Of a DNA stretch of 64,000 bases, positions 655 to 62,309 are shown piece by piece. The notes below the pieces were generated by a model. The model was not told the DNA's origin. It did no database searches and saw only the letters and a program-made list of their open reading frames with translations. The position numbers and the translations under genes are program-made. Position 1 is the stretch's first letter; the number at the start of each line of letters is the position of its first letter. Source of the DNA: Okamejei kenojei (Eukaryota); contig CM069162.1 of assembly GCA_035221665.1 (NCBI GenBank), positions 22,754,001-22,818,000 of the forward strand, given 5' to 3'.

Positions 655-2554
655 ATAACCATATAACCATATAACAATTACAGCACGGAAACAGGCCCTC
701 TCGGCCCTTCCAGTCCGTGCCGACCATTTGTTTTCCCCTAGTCCCATCTACCTGCACTCAGACCATACCCCTCCATTCCCTTCACGTCCATATACCTATC
801 CACTTTACTCTTAAATGTTAAAATCGATCCTGCCTCCACCACTTCTGCTGGAAGCTCATTCCACACAGCCACCACCCTCTGAGTAAAGAAGTTCCCCCTC
901 ACGTTACCCCGAAACCTCTGTCCCTTAATTCTCATGTCATGCCCTCTTGTTTGAATCTTCCCTACCCTCAATGGGAAAAACGTATCCACGTCAACTCTGT
1001 CTATCCCTTTCATCATTTTAAAGACCTCAATCAAGTCCCCCCTTAACCTTCTGCGCTCCAAAGAATAAAGACCTTACTTGTTCAACCTTTCTCTGTAACA
1101 TAGTTGCTGGCACCCTGGCAACATTCTAGTAAATCTCCTCTGTACTCTCTCTATTTTGTTGATATCCTTCCTATAACTAGGCGACCAAAATTGTACACCA
1201 TACTCCAGAATTGGTCTTACCAATGCCTTGTACAATTTTAACATTACTTCCCTACTCCTATATTCAATGCTCTGATTTATAAAGGCCAGCACACCAAAGG
1301 CTTTCTTTACCACCCTATCTACATGCGATTCCACCTTCAGGGAATTATGCACAGTTATTCCTAGATCCCTCTGTTCCACAGCATTCCTCAATTCCCTACC
1401 ATTTACCATGTACGTCCTATTTTGATTTGTCCTGCCAAGATGTAGCACTTCACACTTATCAGCATTAAACTCCATCTGCCATCTTTCAGCCCACTTTTCC
1501 AAATGGCCCAAATCTCTCTGTAGACTTTGAAAATGTACTTCATTATCCACAACACCACCTATCTTAGTATCATCTGCATACTTACTTATCCAATTTTTCC
1601 ACCCCATCATCCAGATCATTGATGTACATGACAAACAACAGTGGACCCAACACAGATCCCTGAGGCACCCCACTGGTCACCGGCTTCCAACCTGACAAAC
1701 AGCCATCCACCATTACTCTCTGACATCTCCCATTCAGCCACTGTTGAATCCATCTTGCTACTCCGCCATTAACACCCAAAGATTGAACCTTCTTAACCAA
1801 CCTTCCATGGGGAACCTTGTCAAAGGCCTTACTGAAATCCATATAGACAACATCCACTGCTTTACCCTCATCAATTTCCCTAGTTACCGCTTCAAAAAAT
1901 TCAAGAAGGTTTGTCAAACATGACCTTCCAGGCACAAATCCATGTTGACTGTTCCTGATCAGACCCTGTTTATCCAGATGCTTATATATATTATCTCTAA
2001 GTATCCTTTCCATTAATTTGCCCACCACTGACGTCAAACTAATAGGTCTATAATTGCTAGGTTTATTCTTTGAACCCTTTTTAAACAATGGAACAACATG
2101 CGCAGTACGCCAATCCTCCGGCACTATTCCCGTTTCTAATGACATTTGAAATATTTCTGTCATAGCTCCTGCTATTTCTACACTAACTTCCCTCAATGTT
2201 CTAGGGAATATCCTGTCAGGACCCGGAGACTTATGCACTTTTATATTTTTCAAAAGTGTCAGTACTTCCTCCTTTTTGAATCTCATAGTTTCCATAGTTA
2301 CTCTACTTTTTCCCCTTAACTCACAGAGTTCAATTTCCTTCTCCTTGGTGAATACCGAAGAAAAGAAATTGTTCAATATCTCCCCCATCTCTTTTGGCTC
2401 TGCAGATAGCTGTCCATTCTGGTTCTCTAATGGTCCAATTTTATCCCTCGTTATCCTTTTGCTATTAATATAGCTGTAGAAACCCTTTGGGTTTACTTTC
2501 ACCTTTCTTGCCAAAGCAACCTCATATCTTGTTTTAGCCTTCCTAATTTCTTTC
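655..2554 (-). mobile_element. CR1-clade LINE (HER1-like), 5'-truncated, young copy: ORF2 reverse transcriptase, C-terminus, 3' UTR and (ATATGGTT)n tail
   Basis: ORFs 1582-2556, 1074-1673 and 738-1061 join into one RT ([45 protein letters not shown]). Only two lesions: a +1 frameshift in the T run at ~1594-1598 and a TAA at 1074-1076. Microsatellite tail ataaccatataaccatataac from 655. Confidence 0.95.
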
Positions 2555-2902
2555 ATATATATGATGAATATAGATGAATAAAAGAGATCACAAATTTATC
2601 TAGGATGCTACACTGTGCATTGCGTAATTCTGCTCAGTGCTTATTACAGAGTGCATAACCATTTAACCTAAAGTATTATTGCGGATCCTGCTTTTGAGAG
2701 GAATCATTCTCTGTAACTGGGTGTGAAGGTTAGTTCTGGGTTCAAGCTATTCTTCGGAGTCTGAACCAGTGTTGTAGTCTGGCGTTGAATGTCATTGCAC
2801 TCTTGGGTGCAATCTAGAACCTGATCAGAATCTGGAAAAGCACTTTAAACTCATGGTCTCTGACGGGCTTGCTCCTGCAGAATTTTAAAGCTTGCTAGGT
2901 CC

Positions 2903-2941: not shown

Positions 2942-3457
2942 GGTCCACTGTAGTAGAACTGCTGGACAATATCAAGGACCCAGATTATGGCAGAATGGTG
3001 GGGAAGAGGTGCAAGTTTGGATGAGGAGGGCTGAGGGCAGGTTGGAATCTTGAGTTGGGTTGGGATATCAGTGGAGAAGAGAAACAGATCATGTCTGCAT
3101 TCCGTTGCTGGAAGCAGGATGGGATTTGGTTGAGGATTTTGGAATTATAATTGAATGGAGGGTTGGGGAGGAGTGTAGGTGACATCTGGGAAAGGGACTA
3201 TCAAGGCATAAGATGGGTACAAGAGAAATAATGCCCTTAGTGCTGGAAAGCAGGGAGAAGCAGCTCTGGCATGTGCTGTGGAGAATTACATCTGCATAAA
3301 CAGTCATGCCATACCTGGAAGTGCCGTCCAGGGGTTGAGTGCCATGAGGTGTTACTGTTTGTGACTGGGAGCCTCCATGTTTCAGCCTGTGAAGAAGGGA
3401 AATGGAGAGCTTTGTGATGTATAAATGTTGTGGTTGGCAATGTCATTTCCAAGCCAA

Positions 3458-3672
3458 AGATAGACACAGAGTGCTGGAGCAACTCAGTGGGTCAGACAGC
3501 ATATCTAGAGAAAAGGAACAGGTGACGTTTCGGGTCGGAACTCTTCTTAATCTGAACAGGAGTTCTGACCCTAAATGTCACCTGTTTCTTTTCTCCAGAA
3601 ATGCTGCCTGACCCACTGTGTTGCTCCAGCACTTTGTGTCTGTCTTCGGTGTAAACCTGCATCTGCAGTTCA
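3458..3672. mobile_element. Fold-back element made of two inverted Penelope terminal-repeat ends; hammerhead-like motif on each strand
   Basis: agatagacacagagtgctggagcaactcagtgggtcag...gtgacgtttcgggtc (3458-~3540) is the reverse complement of ...gaccctaaatgtcac...ctgacccactgtgttgctccagcactttgtgtctgtct. The right arm matches the 3' end of the Penelope at 15925-16037. Confidence 0.8.
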
Positions 3673-3689
3673 TTCCAATGCATTTGTGG

Positions 3690-3945: not shown

Positions 3946-4586
3946 TTTATTTTCTCATTTATTGAGAGATGTGTACCAGAATATGATGCCAATTGAAACA
4001 TCACAGCTAACTGCTTGTGTTGAAGAGTTCTCTTAAAGTTTTTTACTGTTTTCACAGAGGTTTTCCAGAGGGTGTGTACCGAAGGCATTGCAGTACTCAG
4101 GCAACTTTGACCTATGAGCAGTGTAGCTAAAAGAAAATTCAATATTGCTTTATTCAGTCTGTTTTAAATATTCATGATTTTACTGTCGGAAGGAGAAGTG
4201 CCGAGAAAAGCTGTTGCTAAACGGTATTCTTTCCTCAAATCTATAGAAAATAGATATTCAACCCCCCCCCCCCCCCCCCCCCCCCAACACCATAACAGTT
4301 CCACAAAAGTGACACACGATGATAATTACTTCCAGGTGGTTTCACTTCACTTGGTAATTTGTAATGGTCCACTGTAGGGAAATGCAGACCAAATTGCTCC
4401 AGAGTCCGGAGGTGGGTTTGCTTCTTTGGACACAGGTAGGACAGTCTGGTTTCAATTGCAAAGCACCAACTTTCATCCTTGGGCACACAAACCCCAACAA
4501 TTACTGTCCACTCTTCACTCCTTTTCTTTCCTGCCACCATTTGTCTCCTTTTCACCTATAGTTTTTGTCATCCACCCGTTCGCACC

Positions 4587-4770: not shown

Positions 4771-4890
4771 TGTCTGAAGAAAGGTCTCAAAACATCATCT
4801 GTTCATACCCTCTCCAGGTGCTACCTGACCCGCTGAGTCCCTCCAGCACTTAGTATTTTGTTCAAGATTCCAGCGCCTGAAGTTCCTTGA
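4771..4890 (+). mobile_element. Penelope terminal-repeat fragment with degenerate hammerhead motif
   Basis: ctgaagaaaggtctc...ctgacccgctgagt...ctccagcac, same family as 3458-3672 and 50598-50694. Confidence 0.65.
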
Positions 4891-9199: not shown

Positions 9200-9295
9200 T
9201 GCGAGTCCAAAGAAGGGTCCTGACTCGAAACTTCACCTATCCTTTATCTCCAGAGTTACTGCCTAATCCGCTGAGTTGCTACAGCATTTTATGCT
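9200..9295 (+). mobile_element. Penelope terminal-repeat fragment with degenerate hammerhead motif
   Basis: agaagggtcctgactcgaaacttcacctatcc...ccgctgagttgctacagcatttt. Confidence 0.65.
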
Positions 9296-9907
9296 GACTT
9301 TGTCTGTTTTGCAAGTGGCTTCTTGACAGTTTAGAAAAACAAAATTGCACATTGCTATGGAGTATTTGGAGAAACAATCCTTTTGAAAGACCTAATGTGC
9401 ACTGACCTATGGGAAAACCAGATGTTACGCTTGTACCTTTTTCATGGTTTCACTGCGACCCTTCTGTCTGCTGAATGTCTGGAAGAGTTTCCCCAGTAGA
9501 GATGATCCCAGCAGTGTGGTCTGTTGAAACCACTGCAATAACATCACACGGAATTCAAATTTTCATTGATTGTGGAGCTTTGAATGTAACTGTTGTGTTC
9601 TCATGCATATTAATCCATTTATATTAAACTGGATATCAACTGTTTTAAGATGTTATGTAGAAAATTATCACAGAGCAAGTGAGCTCAGTATTTGTAAGTG
9701 AAGTCTGCTGATCAATATTTCTTCCCTGTCATGCTAAATACTCCAGATAATGCATCCCTCTGGGGCTAATGCTGACTGGGAAATCTGTTATTGATCATGT
9801 TGATCAACCTTGGTAGAAATGTCAATGATAAAATGCAGTATTACAGAGTGAGTTTCATACCTACCTGTTGAATTTTATATATATATATACATTGTAAAAC
9901 AGGAAAG

Positions 9908-14683: not shown

Positions 14684-16125
14684 CATAAGTTCATATGTTA
14701 TAGGTGCTGAAATAGGCCATTCCGTCCATCAATTCCAGTCCGCTATTCAATCATGACTGATCTATCTTTCCCTCCCAACCCCATCCTCCTGCCTTCTCCC
14801 CACGACCCCTGACACCCTTGCTAATCAAGAATCTGTCAATCTCCACCGTAACAATATCCATTGACTTGGCCTCAACAGCCTTCTGTGGCAATGAATTCCA
14901 CAGGTTCAGCATCCTCTGACTAAAGAAATCCCTCCTCATCTCCTTTCCAAAGTTACGTCCTTTTATTCTGAAGCTATAGCCTCTGATCCTGGACTTGCCC
15001 ACAAGTGGAAATATCCTCTCCATGTCTACTCTATCCAGGTCTTTCACTCCGTCTACGCTGCATCTGCACCCAGGATGAGTTTTTCCATTTCAGGTCATCG
15101 GAGATGTCCTCATTCTTTAGGAAACGAGGTTCCCCTCTTCCATTATAGATGAGGCTCTCACTAGGGTCTCCTTGATATCCTGCTGCTCCGCTCTTGCTCC
15201 CCCTCCCACCCATTCATAACAAGGACAGAGTGCCCCTTGTCCTCACCTTCCACCCCATCAGCCGTCGCATACAGCATATAATCCACCAACATTTTTGCCA
15301 TCTCCAACGGGTTCCCACTACTGGCCACATCTTCCCATCGCCACCCCTCTGATTTCCACAGAGACCTTTCCCTCTGCAACTCCCTCGTCAACTCGCCCCT
15401 TCCCACCCAAACCACCCTCTCCCCAGGTACTTTCCCCTGCCACCGCAGGAGATGCAACATCTGACTCTTTACCTCCTCCCTCGACTCCATCCAAGGACCC
15501 CAACAGTCTTTTAAGGTGAGGCGGAGGTTCACTTGCACCTCCACCAACCTCATCTACTGTATCCGCTGTTCCAGATGTCAACTGCTGTACATCGGCGAGA
15601 CCAGGCGCAGGCTCGGTGATCGTTCCGCTGAACACCTCCGCTCAGTCTGTCTTAACCTCTCTGATCTCCTGGTTGCTCAGCACTTTAACTCCCCCTCCCA
15701 TTCCCAATCTGACCTTTCTGTCCTGGGCCTCTTCAATTGTCAGAGTGAGGCACAGCGCAAATTGGAGGGACAAACAGCACGTTATATTTTGCTTGGGTAG
15801 CAAGTATGAACATTGACCTAACTTCAAATAGCCCTCTCTCTCCATCCCCTCCCCCTTCCCAGTTCTCCTACCCCTCTTACTGTCTCCAACTACATTCTAT
15901 CTCTGTCCCGCCCACTCCCCTGACATCAGTCTGAAGAGCGTTCTCGACCCAAAATGTCACCCATTCCTTCTCTCCAGAGATGCTGCCTGTCCCGCTGTGT
16001 TACATTTTGTCCCGCTGAGTAGACATTTTGTGTCCACCCAGGTCTTTCACTTTTCGGTAAATTTCAATGTGGACCCCTCATCCTTATAAACACTCAACGA
16101 GTACAGGCCCAGTGCCGTCAAACGC
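14684..16125 (-). mobile_element. CR1 LINE 3' fragment interrupted by a Penelope insertion
   Basis: ORF 14751-15047 (DRVDMERIFPLVGKSRIRG...FFSQRMLNLWNSLP); CR1 sequence resumes at 16052 after the duplicated target. Confidence 0.85.
15049..16037 (+). mobile_element. Penelope-like element, 5'-truncated: RT thumb/linker, GIY-YIG endonuclease and 3' terminal repeat with hammerhead motif
   Basis: KDRVPLVLTFHP...; FTCTSTNLIYCIRCSRCQLLYIGETRRRLGDR (GIY-YIG); 14-bp TSD CCAGGTCTTTCACT at 15035-15048 and 16038-16051; ctgaaga...aaaatgtc at 15931-15958. ORF is disrupted. Confidence 0.9.
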
Positions 16126-23054: not shown

Positions 23055-23262
23055 AGGACACAAAGTGCTGGATAACTCGGCGGGTGAATCAGCATCTCTG
23101 GAGAACCTGGGTCGGTTACATTTCCGGTTCGGACCGTTCTTCAGACGAGACCTAAAACATCCCTTATCCATGTTGTCCGGGGATGCTGTCTGATCTGCTG
23201 AGTTATTCCAGCACTTTGTGTCCTTTTGTGTAAACCAGCACCTACAGTTCCTTGTTTCTACA
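23055..23262. mobile_element. Fold-back Penelope-terminal-repeat element
   Basis: ggacacaaagtgctgga...tccagcactttgtgtcc inverted arms; minus strand 23146-23113 reads gt-CTGAAGA-acggtccgaaccg-GAAA-tGTA-ac. Confidence 0.8.
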
Positions 23263-25084: not shown

Positions 25085-25225
25085 TGCCCAAGACTTAGTC
25101 ATCTGTTGCTGGCTCTGATTTGTTCTGGCCTTTTCCTATCTCCAGTTCCCTCCCCTCTGCTTTCAGTCTGAACAAGGGTTCAGACACAAAATCTGCTGAG
25201 TTAGTCCAGCCCTTTGTGTCCATCT
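25085..25225 (+). mobile_element. Penelope terminal-repeat fragment
   Basis: cagtctgaacaagggttcagac...ctgctgagtta.tccagc.ctttgtgtc. Confidence 0.55.
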
Positions 25226-26759: not shown

Positions 26760-29700
26760 TGTGAAATGCAGATGCTTTCTAAATTATGTTGGCAGTGGAA
26801 ATTTCTTTTTTCTGTTGGTTGCTTGGTGGAAAACTCTTCTGATGTCTCGTAATTTGAAAATAATCCAGTAACCATAGTTGTTTTGAGAAATCAAAATAGT
26901 CCTGATGCACAAATGAATTGTACCATTTAGTTGAATTTAATCTCTCTTTATTTCCATTTGATTTGGCAAACTAAATGTAAGGAAATGCACAGATATAATC
27001 CATCAAGAACGCTGGAGGGAATTTAATTACACCACCCGTTTCAGACTTTTTTCATGTAAGTTAATAGGCGTCTGACCCCAGCCTGCTAATTGTAATATCA
27101 CCCGCAGTGACTGTAATTCTGACAGCGTTACGCATAAATTCACTTTGGTTGAATTAACTGAGCGATGCACAGATCTGACAAGTCAGTTAAAAATGCTTCC
27201 AAAAGGAACAATGAGAGACCTGCAGCCAAATAAAATGGTACATTCATATATTTTAGTATTACTTGTGTCAGTTGGTTTAAAAAAAAATAAAGGTCACCTA
27301 TATCATTTTCATTTCTGAAGCTGTATTTTTCCAGTGGAGCTGCAGCTGTAGTTTTCTTTAAATCAAATCGGGCTACGTTGGGGTGATCAGAGATTCTCTA
27401 GTAAGGTATGTCAGTCTCAGCAGGGCAGCTAAAACTTACTAACTGAACAAAGTTGTAGGTAAGGCGAGTGAAAAATATTTTTAAAATAAATCCCAAATGC
27501 AATGCCATGTATTGTACGTCTTTTCCTTCACATTGCTGCTGTGAATTCTATGCAGGCAGGACATTGCACAATTTCAGTCTCATTTGGAGAACAAATTAAC
27601 AATTTTACTGTTTATTGCGGAGTAATTTAACAGTAGTCTGGGAATAAATTCCTTCACAAACGGGTTAGGGTCCGGTTGTAGTCATGGTCTGGGGAGTGTT
27701 TGTTACTGCCTGTGTTGAGCTGTGTGTGCCTGTGCCATAGCAAAAAAACATTCCATGGTAATCATTGATATTGAAGGCACCACCTTAAGCTGGCATGCCA
27801 GAAATAATTCCTATGGAAGACACATTAAGATGGTTGGCTCTGATAAGACCCGACAGAAATGCAGGATTTATTTTGCTACAAAAACACTTTCATGAAATTT
27901 TTATTTAATAGAAGAATTAGTAGAAGACTCTTAGACATCTATAATGTATTGGGAAGACAAGCTAACGATCTTTGAAATATAGAGTAGTCAGCACAGGCTG
28001 ACCAAAACAAGAGTCTATGTCTATGTGCAGCTGCTTCTGGGAAGTGAAAACGCTGGTGGCTGTCGATCCTTCCATTCACTGACGCATTCGCTGCCCTTGA
28101 AAGTACTGACAATGTACTTAGTGCTGCAGAACATTCTTAACAATGTTTTACACTACCCGACAATTAAACTATGGTTCGGATTCTTTCACAAGGTGTCCCT
28201 GGATTTTATATAGAATGTTCTGTAAAATGTAATTCAACCTTGCTGCGTATGTCATTTTTTTGTTCTCTGACCAGTTCGTTCTCTGTTCCCTGCTGGCTTT
28301 TCATTTATCCCTACCATGGCCAAAGCAAGTATTTTTTTGTCGGAGCATGGAACTACGTGCCTTCTGTACTTCACTCATCATTCCATCAGTGAATGTTGTC
28401 AATGAATAAACTGGTTGTTCCATCACACAGATCTCTGAAATGTCATTGCTAGATGTCCAAGGGCACTTGCAGCATTGTTCACTGAACGGTGTGTTTAGAA
28501 GCATGACATTCCTGCTAGGGCAGGAGACTTGCTTAGATATGGCATCTTGATCAGACTGGAAGAGTATGGCTGAAAGGCCTATTTCCATGCTGTATACATT
28601 TATGATAGTCTAGAGTTCAAGGCCAATGAGAGCAATTCATACCACCCAAAAGTGAGTTGATAATGACAGGTGCAGGCAATGAGGCTTACTCGCCTCGACC
28701 TTGCATTTGTTTTCCAAGCTGCAGCCAGAATCTGCTGCTGGCCTCTATCTTCCATCCACTAGAAGGTTAGGAAGAAGCAACGTTGAATATGCAACTGAGT
28801 AGCAAGTCCTTGAATTCCATCCTGGCAGGTAGGTGCTGACTCCTAAACTTGCTACGGTGAAGCGTGACAATCCAGCTTGCACCCAGTGCACCCTGACAGT
28901 GCTGCTAGGTCAGGTCAGGTGTCCAGTGTGACAAAGCACTTGTATTTGGATTGGGTTTGGCTGTTCCCCAGCTCAGCACCATGCATTAGATTTAGGGCTA
29001 ACCCTGACCCTAACGCCTCCAGATTAGAGTGCAACAATCTTGATGTTGGTCGGGACAACTCTGGATCAGGTCTTGGGCAGATCTCATATATGAAGCTTAC
29101 AATGGGATCGATGTTTCAAGTGCATTAATTCTGTTGTTCTGCTATCTTAATTTCTGTTGGTGCAGATATGCTCTGCTGTCTATACTGTGCTCTGGTTTCT
29201 CAGTGACAGCAGGGGTCTAGATACAAGCCCCCTCTACATTGTCAACAATTCTATCCCAGGATGGATAGGGTTAAGCAGAAACTCCTGGGGAAAGAATACA
29301 CACCTTGGGCTCAGATTTCACCCTCAGCCTTATCTGCAATCAAACCATAATTAATATAAGGGTATTGTTAAAACTCACCAATTCATATTTGTGCATTGAT
29401 AATAACAGGAAATTGTTGGAGATACTCTGCAGGTCAGGCAGCAACTATTGAAAGGGAAGCAGAGTTGACGTTTCAGGTCCACAGATGTGTCCTGCTGAAT
29501 ATTTTCAGCATTTTCTGTTTTTTCCAGACTTTCAGTATTTGCAGTTCTTTGATCTTTGTTTTACTTTGGTTCGTTACTTTATCACGCAAGGAGCCAGTGG
29601 AAGAATGACTGTGCGTCTGTGAATGTGGGTCAGGACGCTGTAGTATGCCTCATCTTCAGGGACAAATGGGTCAGTGTGTCTGTGGACTACTAATTTAGAG

Positions 29701-32921: not shown

Positions 32922-33050
32922 GGGGCACAAAATGCTGGAGTAACGCAGCGAAGATTCCTTTTTTCCATAGATGATGCCTGACCCGCTGAGTTACTCTAGG
33001 TTTTGTGTCTATCTTCGGTGTAAGCCAACATCTGCAGTTCCTTCCTACAC
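32922..33050. mobile_element. Fold-back Penelope-terminal-repeat element with centre deleted
   Basis: cacaaaatgctggagtaac.cagcg ... cgctgagttactctag.ttttgtg. Confidence 0.7.
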
Positions 33051-37352: not shown

Positions 37353-37854
37353 CAAAATGTTGGAAGTTACAGATCAGCCATTACCTTTTTAAAAAAAAAG
37401 ACAAAGTGCTGGAGTAACTTAGCGGGTCTGACTTAGCAGTTCCTTGCTCCAAGCCACTGCCTTTACCACAGTGAGTCCAAGCTCGGCACAGTAAACAATT
37501 GCACTTGTTCCTCGGCACAATGTGGTTAATTTTCCCACTGCATTGAAAGCTGTGTTGCAGTGGGAGTGTCAGCATTTGGCTTTATCCAGTGGGGAAGTGG
37601 TATTGGGTGAGCAAGCATGTTTTGCCGTTGGAGGCTGCACTGTGGAATTTCCAGTGGGAGGGGTGGTGGGTGCACGGGGCTTCATACACATCAGGGTACA
37701 CACAGAATAGTTTCAGATGACCTTGTGTTAACACCTGGATTTGAGGGGGAGACCTGCCCCAAATGCTTTTGTGCGAGGAAGAACATAATGCGAGGTTCAG
37801 CTGAAACGGGACACGAGGGTGGAAAACTATGTGCTGAACAGCCACTTAACCTGC

Positions 37855-38300
37855 AGACACAAGAAACTGCAGCTGCTGAAGTTTTGAGGGGGAAAAAAGT
37901 ACTGGAGGAACACAGCAGGTCAGGCTGCATCCGTAGAGGAAACGGACAGACGATTTTCCAGATTGAAAAAAGGATCTAGAGTGGTGAACCTGTGGTATTC
38001 TCTGTCACAGAAGGTAGTTGAGGCCAGTTCATTGGCTATATTTAAGAGGGAGTTAGATGTGGCCCTTGTGGCTAAAGGGATCAGGGGGTATGGAGAGAAG
38101 GCAGGTACAGGATACTGAGTTGGATGATCAGCCATGATCATATTGAATGGTGGTGCAGGCTCACAGGGCCAAATGGCCTACTCCTGCACCTATTTTCTAT
38201 GTTTCTATGATCCCAAGCCGAATCATCGTCCATCTATTCCCTCCACAGTTACTACCTGACCCATTGAGTTTAGTGGCCCTCCAGCACATTGTTTTAGCCT
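37855..38300. mobile_element. Penelope-terminal-repeat fold-back element split by a CR1 3' fragment (37977-38208, + strand)
   Basis: The CR1 piece agagtggtgaacctgtgg...ctcctgcacctattttctatgtttctat is flanked by GATC (37973-37976, 38209-38212) and sits inside the hammerhead stem II region. Confidence 0.7.
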
Positions 38301-41049: not shown

Positions 41050-41360
41050 AAATGACCCATTTCACCCATCTGCCCTACTGTGCCCATGCTCCTATATTCC
41101 TTCCAATGACTTCATTTTGTGTCGCCTTGATCCTTATCTCACATCATTTGTCTTTTCATTTCTGGCCTTTGTCGAACCATCTGCCAGTCAAAAAAGAAAC
41201 CCTCATCTGGATCCACCAATCACTGGCCAGACTTGTCCCACGCTCGTCTCTTGCCTTTATTACAATCAATTTGAAGAAGGGTCCCAACCCGAAACATCGC
41301 CCGTCCATGTGCTCCAGAGATGCCTCCTAACCCACTGAGTTACTCCAGCACTTTGTCCTT
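41050..41360 (+). mobile_element. Penelope 3' region / terminal repeat with hammerhead-like motif
   Basis: ttgaagaagggtcccaacccgaaacatc at 41271-41298, followed by ctccagagatgc...ctgagttactccagcactttgt. Confidence 0.65.
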
Positions 41361-42460: not shown

Positions 42461-43952
42461 GACTATAAGTGTTCTCAGCAGATCTTCCAATCCTTTATCC
42501 TTGGAGCAATGTCCGTGGTTTACCCCCACCCCACTGTGCCCCTCCAGTATCCCCTCTCAGATTTTTGCACATTTTATGCAATAAAAGTTTGGCTTCACTT
42601 TTTTCATAGTCTTAGATTCCTGATATTATTGAACGTGTCTCTCCGATGCAACAAATAGTTTTTTTTTTCCATTGTAGCTCCAGGTTTGCAATGGGTGAAG
42701 AAATAATGGGAGAGTAGGCAAAGAAAAGCATTGTGCATCTTTTCCAAGAATAACTTCCCAAATCAAATCCAATTCCGACAGTGCCACTTCCTCCTCTGGG
42801 GACAGTAATTGGTTGGCTCTGTTCCATCTGCACAGACATGCTTGCAGAAACCCCCTTTGCATGCTCAATCAAATGAAGTATCAACGCCTTAGTCAAATCA
42901 CACAAAATAGCACAGGTCGGGCCACTTATTACAGATTCAGTACTTTTTTAAAACAACGTAATTTTTTTCCGGGTGTGAGAAATACTGTGCATTTTAACAG
43001 CTCTTTATTGGCCATTTACTTTATCTTTAAGCATTCCATATTTTGTAACAACATAAATTAAACGCAGAATGATATGCAGATCTACATGCTTTTAATACTC
43101 TCTGAATATAAACAATCATGTTTCCGGGTCAAAGAGGCCGCCACGATACATTTTCTTTCTTTGCTGCCAAAAGATTAGCTGTAATAAATACTTTGACTTG
43201 GCATGATAGAGGAAGTAGGGTCTCATTTTTCCTGTGTGTAGATTTTATAACACTAACCAGGTGCCTGCAGTCTGGGTTCAGAAACAGAACGGTATTGATT
43301 ATGTCTGCCTGGATTATTGTGGAGCCCTTCTGTCTTGCTGAACATGAGCAAAGTGGTCTCATACACAGCAATCTGGACAGTTGTTCCAGTTTGAAAGCAG
43401 CCCCTATAGGGAGACAGAGCAAGCATGAAGCTGACAGACCTTGCATATTTCCTTGTGTTCTGAAGTATTTCCCAGTTTTATAAATTCAAATTTTTTAAAA
43501 AGCAAATACTAGAATTCTAAAAATTAGGAAGTATGAAGAAACAGCCAAACATTTGCCTTTCTTTCTGCTTAAAATTTTGGCGTGTCTGAGTCGCAGGCTG
43601 ACAACTGTCCCCCACATGGTCTCTCTCTTCATATAGTGTTCCGCAGTGGATTCTGTCGCTATCTATATCAGTTTTTGAACAACGTCCACAAAATCACATT
43701 TTGCCGCAGCAGGAAGTCCTGGCCTGGCCTCCAGACCCAGCAAGCTTCACATGAACAGCTCCAGCTCTAGGTTTGGAGCCTGCTGGCAATTCCCATGTGT
43801 TCCTGGAGGCCTTGGGGGTGGGGGGCGGGAGGCAGGAATGCTGCTGCAGATTCCTTAAAGTCAGCCTGGCTCAGCGTCTCTGTGATTTCTACAACAGTTG
43901 CTTGCTAAACGCTGGTCTCAAAGGGGAATGAACTGCACCAGTATTATTGGAG

Positions 43953-44043
43953 ATGGACACAAATTGCTGGAGTAATTCAGCGGGTCAGGCAGCATCTCTG
44001 GAGAACATGGATAGGTGACATTTCGGGTCGGAACCCTTCTTCA
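43953..44043 (-). mobile_element. Penelope terminal-repeat fragment with hammerhead-like motif
   Basis: Minus strand: tgaagaagggttccgacccgaaatgtcacc...gacccgctgaattactccagc. Confidence 0.8.
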
Positions 44044-47128: not shown

Positions 47129-48459
47129 GAGGCTTAACATTACCATTTGGTAAATTTCCCACCCCACGATGGGTCAACGAGCTTGACTCAGTTTGATGAA
47201 TGATGATTTATTTTTAAGTTTCTGAAAGATTAAAATATACTGCTAGCCCAATAATAAAAACCAAACGTTAATGCCACAGTTGCATAGAGTGCAATGGTTA
47301 TACATGAGCACAACGTCATGGACTACGTGCTACAGCTGAATACGATTGTGGACTGACTGGCAGGTGGTTCCATCCACCACCTGCCAGCCCCCACCCCAGC
47401 CCACCGTATCACCCCCCACCTCTCCACTCTCAGCCCTATTGCAGGCTCTTGACCCAAAACCTTCTGACCCACTGAGTACCTCAGCACTCTGCTCCAGATT
47501 CCAGCTTCTGCACTCTCTTCTGCCTCAATGTTTGTGGACTTGGTACTTTAAATTCACTCTTTGTTGAAAGATAGAATTGAGAGCTGTCAAAAGAAACTGA
47601 ATGCAACCAAATTGTTGTGAAAATCAGCAGGAAGGTGAAATTAGGTGTTCACTAATTGGAACAGTTTGTACCAAAAATGTGGCTCAATGTCAAATGCATG
47701 AAGCATTTACTTTTGTGTGGTTGCACCCATTGCCTCAGACATTATGACCTTCTGTCGACTTGGTTCGACTTCCTTCCTACTGTCGTCTCTGCTTGTTTTT
47801 TGTGTGACTCACGCTCAGAGACCAGTTTGTCTGAACAGCTAGTCCTTGAACTCTAAGAGTGGTAACAAACACAACCCACTTTTTGTGGCTTCTTTCACTT
47901 TGCATAAAAGCCTTTATCAGAACTTGTAGCCATTAGTTACACTGCAGAGAGATGCAGAGGAAGTGCCACCCTTCCCCAGTCTAACCACCCGCGCAAGAGT
48001 GGAAATGTGAGGTGGGGGCCTGTGGGTGCCAATGTCTTGCTGATAAGGAGTTTATATAAACACTTTATGCAAGTGAAAAAAGTAAAAATATTTATAATAT
48101 TACTGATTCTAGGTCATGATAATGAATGTAATTTTAACAAGCTGTTGCTTGATTGAAAATACATTTTAAGGCATGGAAACTGTAAAATTGATTCAATCTT
48201 GTTTAATCAACAAATCCTGAGGATAAAATAAATTGTAGATCTCAGCAAAAGAGCTGTTTAAAGTGGAGTTTTTGCCACATAAATATCAAAAGGAAAGATG
48301 TTTAATTGTCGTATGCAATGGAACTGGGTGAACAATGAAATTCTTACTTGCTGTAGTCTTGCAGGCCCATTAATGCAATAACACCACAAATAAATGCACA
48401 ATAAATGATCGATTCTAGCAGGTAAACCAATATCATGCAGCTGGTGAGGTCCGGTTATT

Positions 48460-50597: not shown

Positions 50598-50694
50598 GGG
50601 TCTGAAGAAGGGTCTCGACCCAAAACGTCACCCATTCCTTCTCTGCAGAGATGCTGCCTGTCCTGCTGAGTTACTCCAGCATTTTGTGTCTACC
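50598..50694 (+). mobile_element. Penelope terminal-repeat fragment with near-consensus hammerhead motif
   Basis: gggt-CTGAAGA-agggtctcgaccc-AAAAC-GTC-accc (GAAA changed to AAAA, consistent with CpG decay). Confidence 0.8.
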
Positions 50695-51914
50695 TAATGA
50701 GAATGCATGCTGTCCCATCTGATATATTGAAAACATGATCAAAAGTTTGCTTTAGCTGAGGGTATCAAGGATTGTGGAATAAAGCCAGGTAAATGGAGCA
50801 GAGATACAGGTTGGCAAAGATCTAATCGACTGCAGAGGGTCTGAATAACTTTATTATTTTTGCTGTCTCACTTCTTGATGAAGCAAGTTCTTTCACTGGG
50901 GTCACACAGCAAGGCAAAAACTTCCAACATTATCAGAGAGAACATCCCACTCTCTGCTTCTAGATATGGTGACTTCACCCTGACTCAACCCTGTGGTGAA
51001 TCAGCAACGTCTCTGTTGCCTTTCCAGAGAGCAGCTTGACAGAATTGAAAAACAAAACCTGTGCTGAAATTATTTGCCAATGATGTTTATTGTTGTAGAA
51101 TTAATTTAAATAACAAGCTGGGACTCTAGGGATTGTTATTGCTGAGCAATAAACACAGTGGAGCTAAAATTCCATGGCTTGCCCATTCTAACTCCGATGG
51201 GAGACTGGCAGATCTCCAGGGATGAGATGGTTAGGACATGGTTATAGCAGGAGATCAATGGAAATCATGCAGACCTACCCTCCGGTTACTTCCAGAGTTT
51301 GTGTAAGAAAGAACTTTGGGTATTGAATATAACAAACTACACACAGCAAGATCCTGCAAACAGTGCATATAATACATGCCTAGTCGTTGAAAGATAATTG
51401 TTGGGTGAGATGCTTGGGTGGCTCCATTGCAGGAAGATCGCAACTCTTCAAAGTACTTCATGCAAAAATTTGTAACATGAGAAATAGAAGCAGCTAGGAT
51501 CATGGCATATATTTTACCTCAACATCCCCTTCACACAATAATTTCACACCTTGTGATTCCTTCTACAGATCTATTGATCCCTGTTTTGGGTGTTCTTGGC
51601 TACTCAGGCTTCACAGCCCCGGGCAGTGAATTCCAAAGATTCTGAATAAATTTATTTTTACCTCTATCTTAAATGGTTATTTACTATTTTGAGACTGTGA
51701 CCCTTGATTGTAAACACTATCTCCCCTGTCGTCCTTAAGAATTTTGTATGTTTTAATGAAAATATTCCACAAAAACAGTAGAGAATATTGTCAACATAAC
51801 CTCTCCCACTGCCCACCTCAATCAATTCTGTGATCTTTTGTTGCACTGCTCCCCAAGTATTTGCTTCATTTGGTACGGAGAACAATCCTGCACACAATGA
51901 AATAGAATTATTAC

Positions 51915-60769: not shown

Positions 60770-60935
60770 AAACAAAGAACTGCAGGTGCTGGTTAATACG
60801 CAAAAGGACACAAAGTGCTGGAGTAATTCAGCAGGTCAGGCAGTATCATTGGAGAGGATCCCAACCCAAAACTCCTATCCGTGTTCTGCACAGATGCTGC
60901 CTGATCCGCTGAGTTACTCCAGCATTTTGTGTCTC
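60770..60935. mobile_element. Fold-back Penelope-terminal-repeat element
   Basis: gacacaaagtgctggagtaattcagc ... gctgagttactccagcattttgtgtc. Confidence 0.75.
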
Positions 60936-62309
60936 CTAAGCGTCAGGCCTGGAATTTCCATTTGGATGAATGGGATCTTTGGCCTAGAATCGGGGAGGTA
61001 GATTCCGCAGCATAATGCTACCAATCCATATCAGGCCTCTCTACAGCGCTGGCACCATGAACAATCTGAGGTCTCCCTGCGGCAGGACTGACTGCTGGGG
61101 ATGTCTGAATATCATCGGCACCAGCGACAACCATCTTGTCATGGCATCTCAGCCCATTCCCTGAGCTTTGTAGGCTTTGTCCCATTGAACCAGGTGCAGG
61201 GAATTACGGATAAAAAACACAAAATGCCAATATAAGGTTGGGGACTTAAAACAGTTGCTGTTCTTATGTCCAAGAATACCATCACCTACTGAGAGGTTCC
61301 AGCATTTTCTGTTTTTATTTTACATTTACTGCACTTTGCATTTGTGTGGAACTGTATTTCTGTTGCTTTGCAACCTATAACGCTTCATCCAGTTTTTGCT
61401 ATTCATATTTTTCAGTGGATGTCACTGGAACAATTCGACATAATATTGTCTTTAACTTCTAAATCCCAGAGATATTTGCATGAATTGCAATATCCCACTA
61501 TTGTTCCCGTCTACATCAAGTGCATTCACTTTTATTCACTCTTAATACTTTGGCTTTGGAACCTACTTTGTTCATTGGGAAGCTTCTTCTTGTCGTAGGC
61601 ATTTGCTCGCCATTAACAGTTGCCGCACCGCCTCAAATCAAAACAGCTACTCGCAGACTGAGAACATTGGGATGTGGATGTCAGTGGCCAAGCTAATGTT
61701 TGTTGCTTATCCTGAACTGCCTTTGAAGGTGAAGGCAGTCCAGCTTCCAAGCCATCTTTTTGATGAAGGTGCACCCGTGATGCTGTTGGGAAGGAGGTTT
61801 GAGGAATTAAACCCATTAACAATGAATTCCAAGTCCGGAAACATGCATGTTGGAGATGGTGGCCCAGGTGGTGTCCCATGTGTGTATGGCGCTTGTCTTC
61901 CTCGGTGCTCTGTTTCACGCGGTATACAAAGCAGCCACTGAATGAATGTTCAGGGTGGGGTATGGAGTACCAGTCAAGCAGGGGTTTTGTCTGAGATGGT
62001 GTCATCTTGTCTGCTCCAGCAGTGTCTTGCACCATCAGAGGAAATTTCCATCACTTCACTTTTATTTGCTCTTAAAGCTTTTGCTTAGTGACCATCACTT
62101 TGGAAATCTAGTGTCCTCTATTTGGTTGAGTTTTCATCCATATATTTAGACTTTGCAAAAGATTCAGTTCCTCAATACAACTTTATTTTTTAAAAAGCTA
62201 AACCAGTTTTCATGTTTTTGACCAAATTATTTTTCCAGTTAAGTGCTTTTTGCATTGCACACTATCAAAAAGAATCCTAATTTTATTCTGTTTTTTGCCT
62301 TCTATTTAG

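Follow-up and report, generated by a model that had tools for sequence, protein, structure and literature searches.

Short terminal-repeat palindromes in Okamejei kenojei as probable twin-primed insertions of a Penelope-like element

Is a short, non-coding palindrome that carries remnants of a ribozyme motif a member of a mobile family of its own, or a by-product of a larger element? The question is raised by positions 3454-3675 of a 64,000-nucleotide stretch of the Okamejei kenojei genome (assembly GCA_035221665.1, contig CM069162.1, positions 22,754,001 to 22,818,000), the whole of which is called the window here. The locus is a head-to-head palindrome with 85% identity between its arms and a tail of ~30 bp on one side, the right. 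Folded as RNA it gives one long hairpin (-155 kcal/mol, z -21.8) that none of 200 shuffles equaled. Both arms extend to a hammerhead motif at one end of the terminal repeat (pLTR) of a Penelope-like element (PLE), and both cores are mutated. Positions in the pLTR are numbered from the C of CUGAAGA as 1, with the preceding T, G, A, and C as 0, -1, -2, and -3. The parts of the locus are as follows.

3454..3548, minus strand: tail-less inverted pLTR arm, pLTR ~4-97, hammerhead core decayed
3549..3551, unstranded: head-to-head junction, decayed CAG-(A/T)-CTG type
3552..3645, plus strand: pLTR arm in sense orientation, pLTR 1-~94; its decayed hammerhead core has changes at G8 and G12
3646..3675, plus strand: one-sided tail of ~30 bp, intact target-site duplication (TSD) lost

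A profile search of the window found 21 arms at 17 loci, all matching the pLTR of a PLE with a GIY-YIG endonuclease. This bears out the first-pass annotation, which had seen that short elements across the window share the 3' end of the Penelope copy at 15049-16037. The same annotation described several copies as palindromes, which is true of four loci (3458, the present one, with 23055, 32922, and 60770); the remaining loci are single arms. The GIY-YIG stretch of the longer copy is close to other genomic sequences, its best 150 genome matches having 76-100% identity. The other copies in the window are listed here.

15035..16051, plus strand: 5'-truncated Penelope-like copy (15049-16037) with a 14-bp TSD (15035-15048 and 16038-16051) and a tail-less pLTR from 15931
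15465..15797, plus strand: the GIY-YIG endonuclease stretch in the copy above; its Pfam match (E 2.5e-4) falls slightly short of the curated cut-off
23055..23256, unstranded: palindrome; the minus arm (1-88) has the one hammerhead core that is intact in the window, and the plus arm (13-123) has a tail
32922..33046, unstranded: asymmetric palindrome, arms without hammerhead, tail on the right
60772..60934, unstranded: palindrome whose minus arm (40-122) has a tail and whose plus arm (8-89) has none
4774..4888, plus strand: solo pLTR with tail
9210..9297, plus strand: tail-less solo pLTR
25166..25224, plus strand: solo pLTR with internal deletion; upstream sequence pyrimidine-rich, UTR-like
29409..29481, minus strand: old solo pLTR fragment
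37398..37438, minus strand: pLTR fragment
37861..37965, minus strand: old tailed solo pLTR
38209..38297, plus strand: old solo pLTR fragment
41272..41360, plus strand: tail-less pLTR, putative upstream UTR from about 41050
43926..44043, minus strand: tailed solo pLTR
47462..47491, plus strand: weak pLTR fragment (E 0.087)
50602..50695, plus strand: tail-less solo pLTR, the best preserved in the window
61234..61313, plus strand: old solo pLTR fragment

Elsewhere in the window, positions 738-2595 (minus strand) hold part of a LINE, which we take to be CR1-like and in which a reverse transcriptase frame is recognised (Pfam RVT_1, E 1e-26).

The family consensuses do read as the minimal hammerhead that had been proposed, CUGAAGA-A-stem II-GAAAC-GUC/AUC, with a helix I of 2 bp (U-A or U-G, then G-C) and a stem II of 4-5 bp. 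As in the type I minimal hammerheads of metazoan PLEs described in PMC4209133, there is a CUGANGA box, an unpaired base before stem II, a G-C first pair, and a palindromic ACGU in place of helix III; the 2-bp helix I of this predicted ribozyme recalls the D. virilis variant of that account. An intact core with stem II was found in one of the 17 window matches tested (23057-23144, minus strand) and in 102 of 262 sampled arms that retain the 5' part. The further idea that each strand of a palindrome carries a motif does not hold for the window, where none of the four palindromes has two intact motifs. In three of the four the CUGA box is missing from at least one arm because the arm starts past it (at 13 in one arm of 23055, at 8 and 40 in 60770, and at about 31 and 63 in 32922). 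Dual opposite-strand motifs 100-700 bp apart had already been noted in Schistosoma (PMC4209133).

The hammerhead lies at the inner ends of the arms and not at the element termini. Rfam gave no hammerhead match at E<=10, and RNA folding of the monomer did not favor the hammerhead. Two-sided changes at the five pairs of stem II numbered 4, 1, 0, 0, and 4 among 193 arms, which are neutrally decaying copies of near-identical sources in which little signal is expected. A palindromic transcript of either strand would have one sense motif preceded by its own complement, and is predicted to keep the hammerhead double-stranded, locked in the hairpin. The PLE minimal hammerheads treated in PMC4209133 and PMC6765202 are described there as cleaving weakly, as dimers. 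The motif is likely an inherited passenger, neither needed for fold-back nor the engine of a separate family. Ribozyme-cleaved RNA was also considered as the template and rejected, since arm starts do not pile up where the ribozyme would cut (only 2 of 493 are at position 29) and the ACGT-centred junctions contain bases 5' of the cut. The copy at 23057-23144 (minus strand) has C-G as its first stem II pair instead of the consensus G-C, so that in this old copy both sides of the pair have apparently changed.

The class is very abundant. In a 598-kb sample taken at round coordinates of the 2.76-Gb genome there were 252 arm matches, made up of 42 head-to-head pairs and 168 singles, which extrapolates roughly to ~190,000 pairs and ~780,000 singles genome-wide (a second figure is 194,000 pairs of 968,000 loci). 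By this rough extrapolation the pLTR stumps number about a million and one in five is a hairpin, and such copies can be mistaken for miRNA precursors, for MITEs, or for a family of ribozymes. At least four groups exist that differ in their upstream UTRs and have the first ~28 nt of the pLTR in common. In the young subfamily, an internal 35-mer has 30,565 exact matches across the genome.

A coding parent is preserved at L216 and L122, where a truncated copy is followed by a full 3,993-bp unit in partial tandem; the repeats are 99.5% identical, and the reverse transcriptase (RT)-like and GIY-YIG frames are broken. Another locus, L136, has a 481-aa frame with YIDD, which we take to be the RT motif, and a GIY-YIG match of E 0.0018, under the curated cut-off. 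Pfam RVT_1 did not match this frame, and a PDB sequence search with the RT-EN frame gave no match. Taken together, the copies present features of endonuclease-bearing (EN+) PLEs: GIY-YIG after an RT-like frame, a partial tandem, a one-sided tail, and an inverted 5'-truncated copy within the TSD. The pLTR plus tail is the start of the next unit in the tandem parent, the same relation as in rotifer PLEs (PMC3846280).

Two features of the parent are predictions from its sequence. At L122:3832-3955 the tail is predicted to pair with the AGAUGCUG segment and the 5' purine tract; this pLTR-plus-tail fold is a candidate enzyme-binding stem-loop and is no more stable than shuffles (z -0.6). Directly after the tail, L122:3991-4113 is a predicted GT-AG intron of ~120 nt with a branch-like CTCTAAC at 4049. 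The frame before it, following the hammerhead TGA, is in phase with the open frame beyond, and no ATG was seen in this preceding frame. Among the joints listed there were no spliced reads for this intron, the reads being probably from another species.

Young copies bear on whether a palindrome is one insertion or two. Of 50 exact-junction sites examined, 43 could be oriented by the tail, and 31 of these 43 have a TSD of at least 9 bp, against 0 of 50 in a distant-window control. Among the youngest exact-junction copies (60 fetched of 99 found), 49 of 60 have a TSD of that size, with a mode of 14 bp. In most young copies one TSD encloses both arms, and each palindrome is taken as a single insertion event. 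The check for TSDs that had been suggested for the palindromes thus gives duplications of ~14 bp in young copies; the four old window palindromes have no intact one. Longer inverted insertions at L098 and L136, with arms of 316 and 517 bp, have 15-bp TSDs. The target sites at L158-L215 are AT-rich inside the 14-bp duplication and T-rich just after it, and the A run at the tail end is often lengthened. At L266, 27 filler bases between TSD and pLTR resemble, by eye, inverted PLE pieces from just past the tail.

The structure of these insertions was examined in a sample chosen without regard to the junction, namely the first 100 listed sites of the internal 35-mer, from 7.2 Mb of contig C1. Of these, 99 anchors were parsed, in a sample blind to truncations past position 16: 62 are solo, 32 fall in 25 inverted insertions, and 5 are tandem-like and irregular. 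The 25 inverted insertions have inner ends from -1023 to +98 and arms of up to ~1.1 kb, and body sequence is absent from 19 of them. The pLTR ends cluster at two places, ~93 (tail-less) and ~129 (tailed). Solos use the first in 41 cases, the second in 18, and another in 3, and the tail-less end is also used by coding copies (20 of 29 long solos). Inverted insertions combine the two ends, with one tailed and one tail-less in 19 of the 20 that could be classified (5 could not), where 0.42 would be expected (p 1e-6). The tail-less arm reaches further 5' in 12 insertions and the tailed arm in 4, with 5 equal; the 12:4 asymmetry alone has p 0.08.

The arms of one insertion agree with each other more often than independent draws would predict. 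Discordance at diagnostic sites was 0 of 23 at position 91 (p 4e-4), 0 of 33 at position 17, and 2 of 27 at position 81. Private changes are mostly unshared between arms (30 vs 8), which indicates that the arms were not simply homogenised. The agreement at diagnostic sites and the mostly unshared private changes together point to one RNA or one source for both arms. For the anole Poseidon element PAc, studied in vitro in an account that does not deal with inverted insertions (PMC11167929), both target strands were cut and extended, RT started internally at two sites a tail-length apart that match the tail ends, and uncleaved RNA was used, ribozyme cleavage being dispensable. The pairing of ends here and the behavior of the anole enzyme suggest separate priming sites for the two DNA ends.

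The palindromes are best explained as single insertions of a coding Penelope-like element, each probably formed at its own site through twin priming. The PLE enzyme would cut the two strands of the target with a stagger of about 14 nt, and element RNA would be copied from both DNA ends, the two short copies being joined head to head. Of the two DNA ends, one would start copying at the tail-less site and its partner at the tail site, probably using a single RNA or transcripts of one source, in line with the anole work (PMC11167929). The cDNA 3' ends would be joined through 0-4 nt of microhomology or a short filler, with joining hotspots at self-complementary words of the pLTR (CAG-T-CTG and ACGT). 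The shortest class may arise by initiation on the 5' pLTR of the transcript, with cDNA running off at the RNA start near an initiator-like YCAGTCT; this is the step we are least sure of, and it could equally well be right or wrong. The outline resembles the twin priming of L1 (PMC11702581), in which second priming likewise occurs at the reciprocal DNA end, the TSD is discrete, and the junction involves microhomology or end joining. As described there, the second L1 primer anneals just beyond the first cDNA, so that little is duplicated. Here the second start is fixed ~36 nt from the first, so that the copies overlap and form a palindrome.

The published reading of inverted EN+ PLE insertions is self-priming on antisense RNA, and the present data fit two priming events better. 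On that account, which we regard as unlikely, the antisense RNA or cDNA folds back and primes itself at a small palindrome, and staggered endonuclease resolution leaves the one-sided tail. It has been proposed for rotifer PLEs (PMC3846280, with the tail part in PMC8557442) and would suit the junction hotspots at self-complementary words; against it, most junctions lie away from palindromic words and some contain filler. Snap-back from a tailed, sense-primed first strand is impossible for the 12 insertions with the longer tail-less arm, and a tail-less first strand cannot supply the tail. The in vitro start sites on sense RNA, moreover, match both tail ends (PMC11167929). With the antisense-template version the present data are compatible.

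Less probable still is an independent non-autonomous family in which a palindromic RNA of ~220 nt from master copies is retrotransposed whole by the PLE enzyme. One point in favor of a family is the stereotyped CAG-(A/T)-CTG junction, which has 828 exact sites genome-wide (control 0). The best genome matches to 3458-3672 are full-length palindromes of ~205 bp, and the left arm scores over at least 90 nt in 48 of the 60 youngest exact-junction copies. Yet this symmetric junction occurs in 0 of the 25 inverted insertions sampled blind, which among them have 22 distinct junction pairs. The symmetric form and ACGT are junction hotspots; palindromes centred on ACGT (23 exact sites, 10 viewed) contain no hammerhead core, yet they too have a tail on one side only. 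Five common haplotypes are present alike in body-bearing, solo, and palindromic copies among 177 young arms, a set from which loci selected on haplotype were omitted. No left-arm-specific variants recur besides CpG decays. Varied blind junctions, haplotypes common to coding copies, and the want of recurrent arm-specific variants make an independent family unlikely. Also in its favor, the G17 variant is enriched in palindromes, with 5 palindromic arms and 1 solo arm vs 0 of 45 body-bearing arms; rare G17 types are the only ones without a body-bearing example, and this distribution leaves room for a palindrome-rich source.

The enzymology also speaks against such a family. Since coding copies too end at the tail-less site, that site behaves as an RT start rather than the 5' end of an RNA. 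For the anole enzyme, RNA past the mapped start was required (the first 172 nt of the ORF, with the start at 111-118; PMC11167929). A corresponding region may be missing from stumps that end in the tail. Of the two possibilities that the first-pass annotation offered, a ribozyme-terminated non-autonomous family thus finds no support, and stereotyped abortive PLE insertions are supported, with the qualification that the stereotyped junction exists but is missing from the blind sample. The annotation had also held that unique junctions would speak against a family, and the junctions are indeed largely unique.

Formation after insertion, whether a second copy homed in next to an earlier one or replication switched templates at a solo copy, might account for the A/B chimera described below and for centre changes between paralogues, and PLE enzymes can nick their own pLTR (PMC11167929), but it is very improbable given the single TSD around both arms in most young copies, the tail/no-tail complementarity (19 of 20), a tail that could not be copied from a tail-less solo, and the rarity of tail-to-tail pairs (6 vs 108 head-to-head, including 35 targeted sites).

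Some junctions are of particular kinds. At L032 a precise symmetric junction unites arms of two different subfamilies (an A/B chimera) with no clear TSD; this exception to a common source of the arms would require two RNAs or a recombination event. At L035, L074:6511, L117, L130, L137, and L150 the junction has three parts and includes short pieces of pLTR that start again, often from GAGT or CAGT, which suggests repeated template switching at the 5' boundary. The centre base of the symmetric junction relative to the tail is A in 22 and T in 21 of 43 sites, and A in 45 and T in 54 where the young arms are identical over 114 nt (p 0.42). Such a mix is what an A:A mismatch between two annealed cDNAs would give, but the ratio is only weak evidence against one fixed master. 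Its value as proof of de novo formation is reduced because both paralogous pairs found, L171/L190 (99.4% identity over 665 bp) and L161/L206, differ at the centre base. The mixture may reflect later spacer inversion or assembly error; spacer inversion between perfect inverted repeats is documented in PMC8604942.

The short 5' ends bear on how the twin-primed copies may stop. Solo 5' ends fall within -6..+8 in 33 of 62 cases, where the rate just upstream would predict 0.75, and none lie at 9-16; in 18 of the 25 inverted insertions an arm ends in the same interval. An initiator-like CAGT, in the context YCAGTCT, lies just upstream of the hammerhead, and these 33 of 62 solos begin no more than 15 nt from it. 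We take YCAGTCT to fit the initiator consensus, with A(-2) as +1, and the site is possibly the RNA start. Six of the 33 short solos start at -3 to -6, upstream of the proposed +1. PLE transcripts of D. virilis begin within the pLTR (PMC2377424), and full-length L1 inserts can have a cap-derived G (PMC11702581). Among 15 older non-templated cases, 9 have a cap-like additional G ahead of AGT (p 0.007, post hoc); of 33 young solos, only 2 read G-AGT. No pile-up of starts or ends was seen in RNA reads (cDNA runs X21-X23, whose many mismatches to the young subfamily make another species the probable source). Splicing of host exons onto the acceptor-like CAG|T was rejected as a source of the short copies: most TSDs abut the element, and there is no common or exon-like insert between.

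A more specific model, to which we give slightly less than an even chance, is that an enzyme dimer starts two RTs on one RNA, one per end of the 14-nt stagger and at sites 36 nt apart, and that on the 5' pLTR both would run off at the capped start and be joined. If true, the tail, the inverted pLTR, and the very large pLTR-only class would all follow from one mechanism, and the fossils would map the PLE transcription start. The young copies supply quantitative footprints that are testable in the existing in vitro system, namely a single tail for each insertion, agreement between arm haplotypes, and the clustering of 5' ends.

The layout of inverted pLTR, tail, and TSD is already published (PMC3846280, PMC8557442, PMC2377424, PMC8969392), and the palindromes are no new element type. 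In EN+ PLE insertions of Adineta (Pen2a_Av, PMC3846280) and D. virilis (PMC2377424), and in those of PMC8557442, the accounts give, like here, a head-to-head inverted pLTR, a 30-40-bp tail at one end with a TSD around the whole, a partial tandem parent, and a small palindrome at some junctions. Unlike the insertions in those accounts, 19 of 25 here are body-less and the class is very abundant. The origin of the inverted pLTRs and tails is still described as unexplained in PMC8557442. A literature search conducted mostly outside subscription papers found no published pLTR-only palindromes in cartilaginous fish and no PLE twin priming. Non-LTR retrozymes (bioRxiv 10.64898/2026.07.22.740005; PMC7229834) are likewise non-coding and PLE-related, with type I hammerheads. 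They are head-to-tail tandem units with same-strand ribozymes in the preprint's description (bioRxiv 10.64898/2026.07.22.740005), whereas the copies here are head-to-head, tandem-like anchors being few (5 of 99) and irregular. Unlike those of retrozymes, the opposing motifs here cannot pair as a same-strand dimer within one transcript.

Palindromes can also ride passively in another retroelement. A young one lies inside a CR1-like LINE segment found at L171:1101-1763 and again at L190, the two being 99.4% identical and one of them 5'-truncated. At L161 and L206, a repeat of ~2.2 kb on two contigs contains the same palindrome insertion, and one of its copies has a duplication at the centre.
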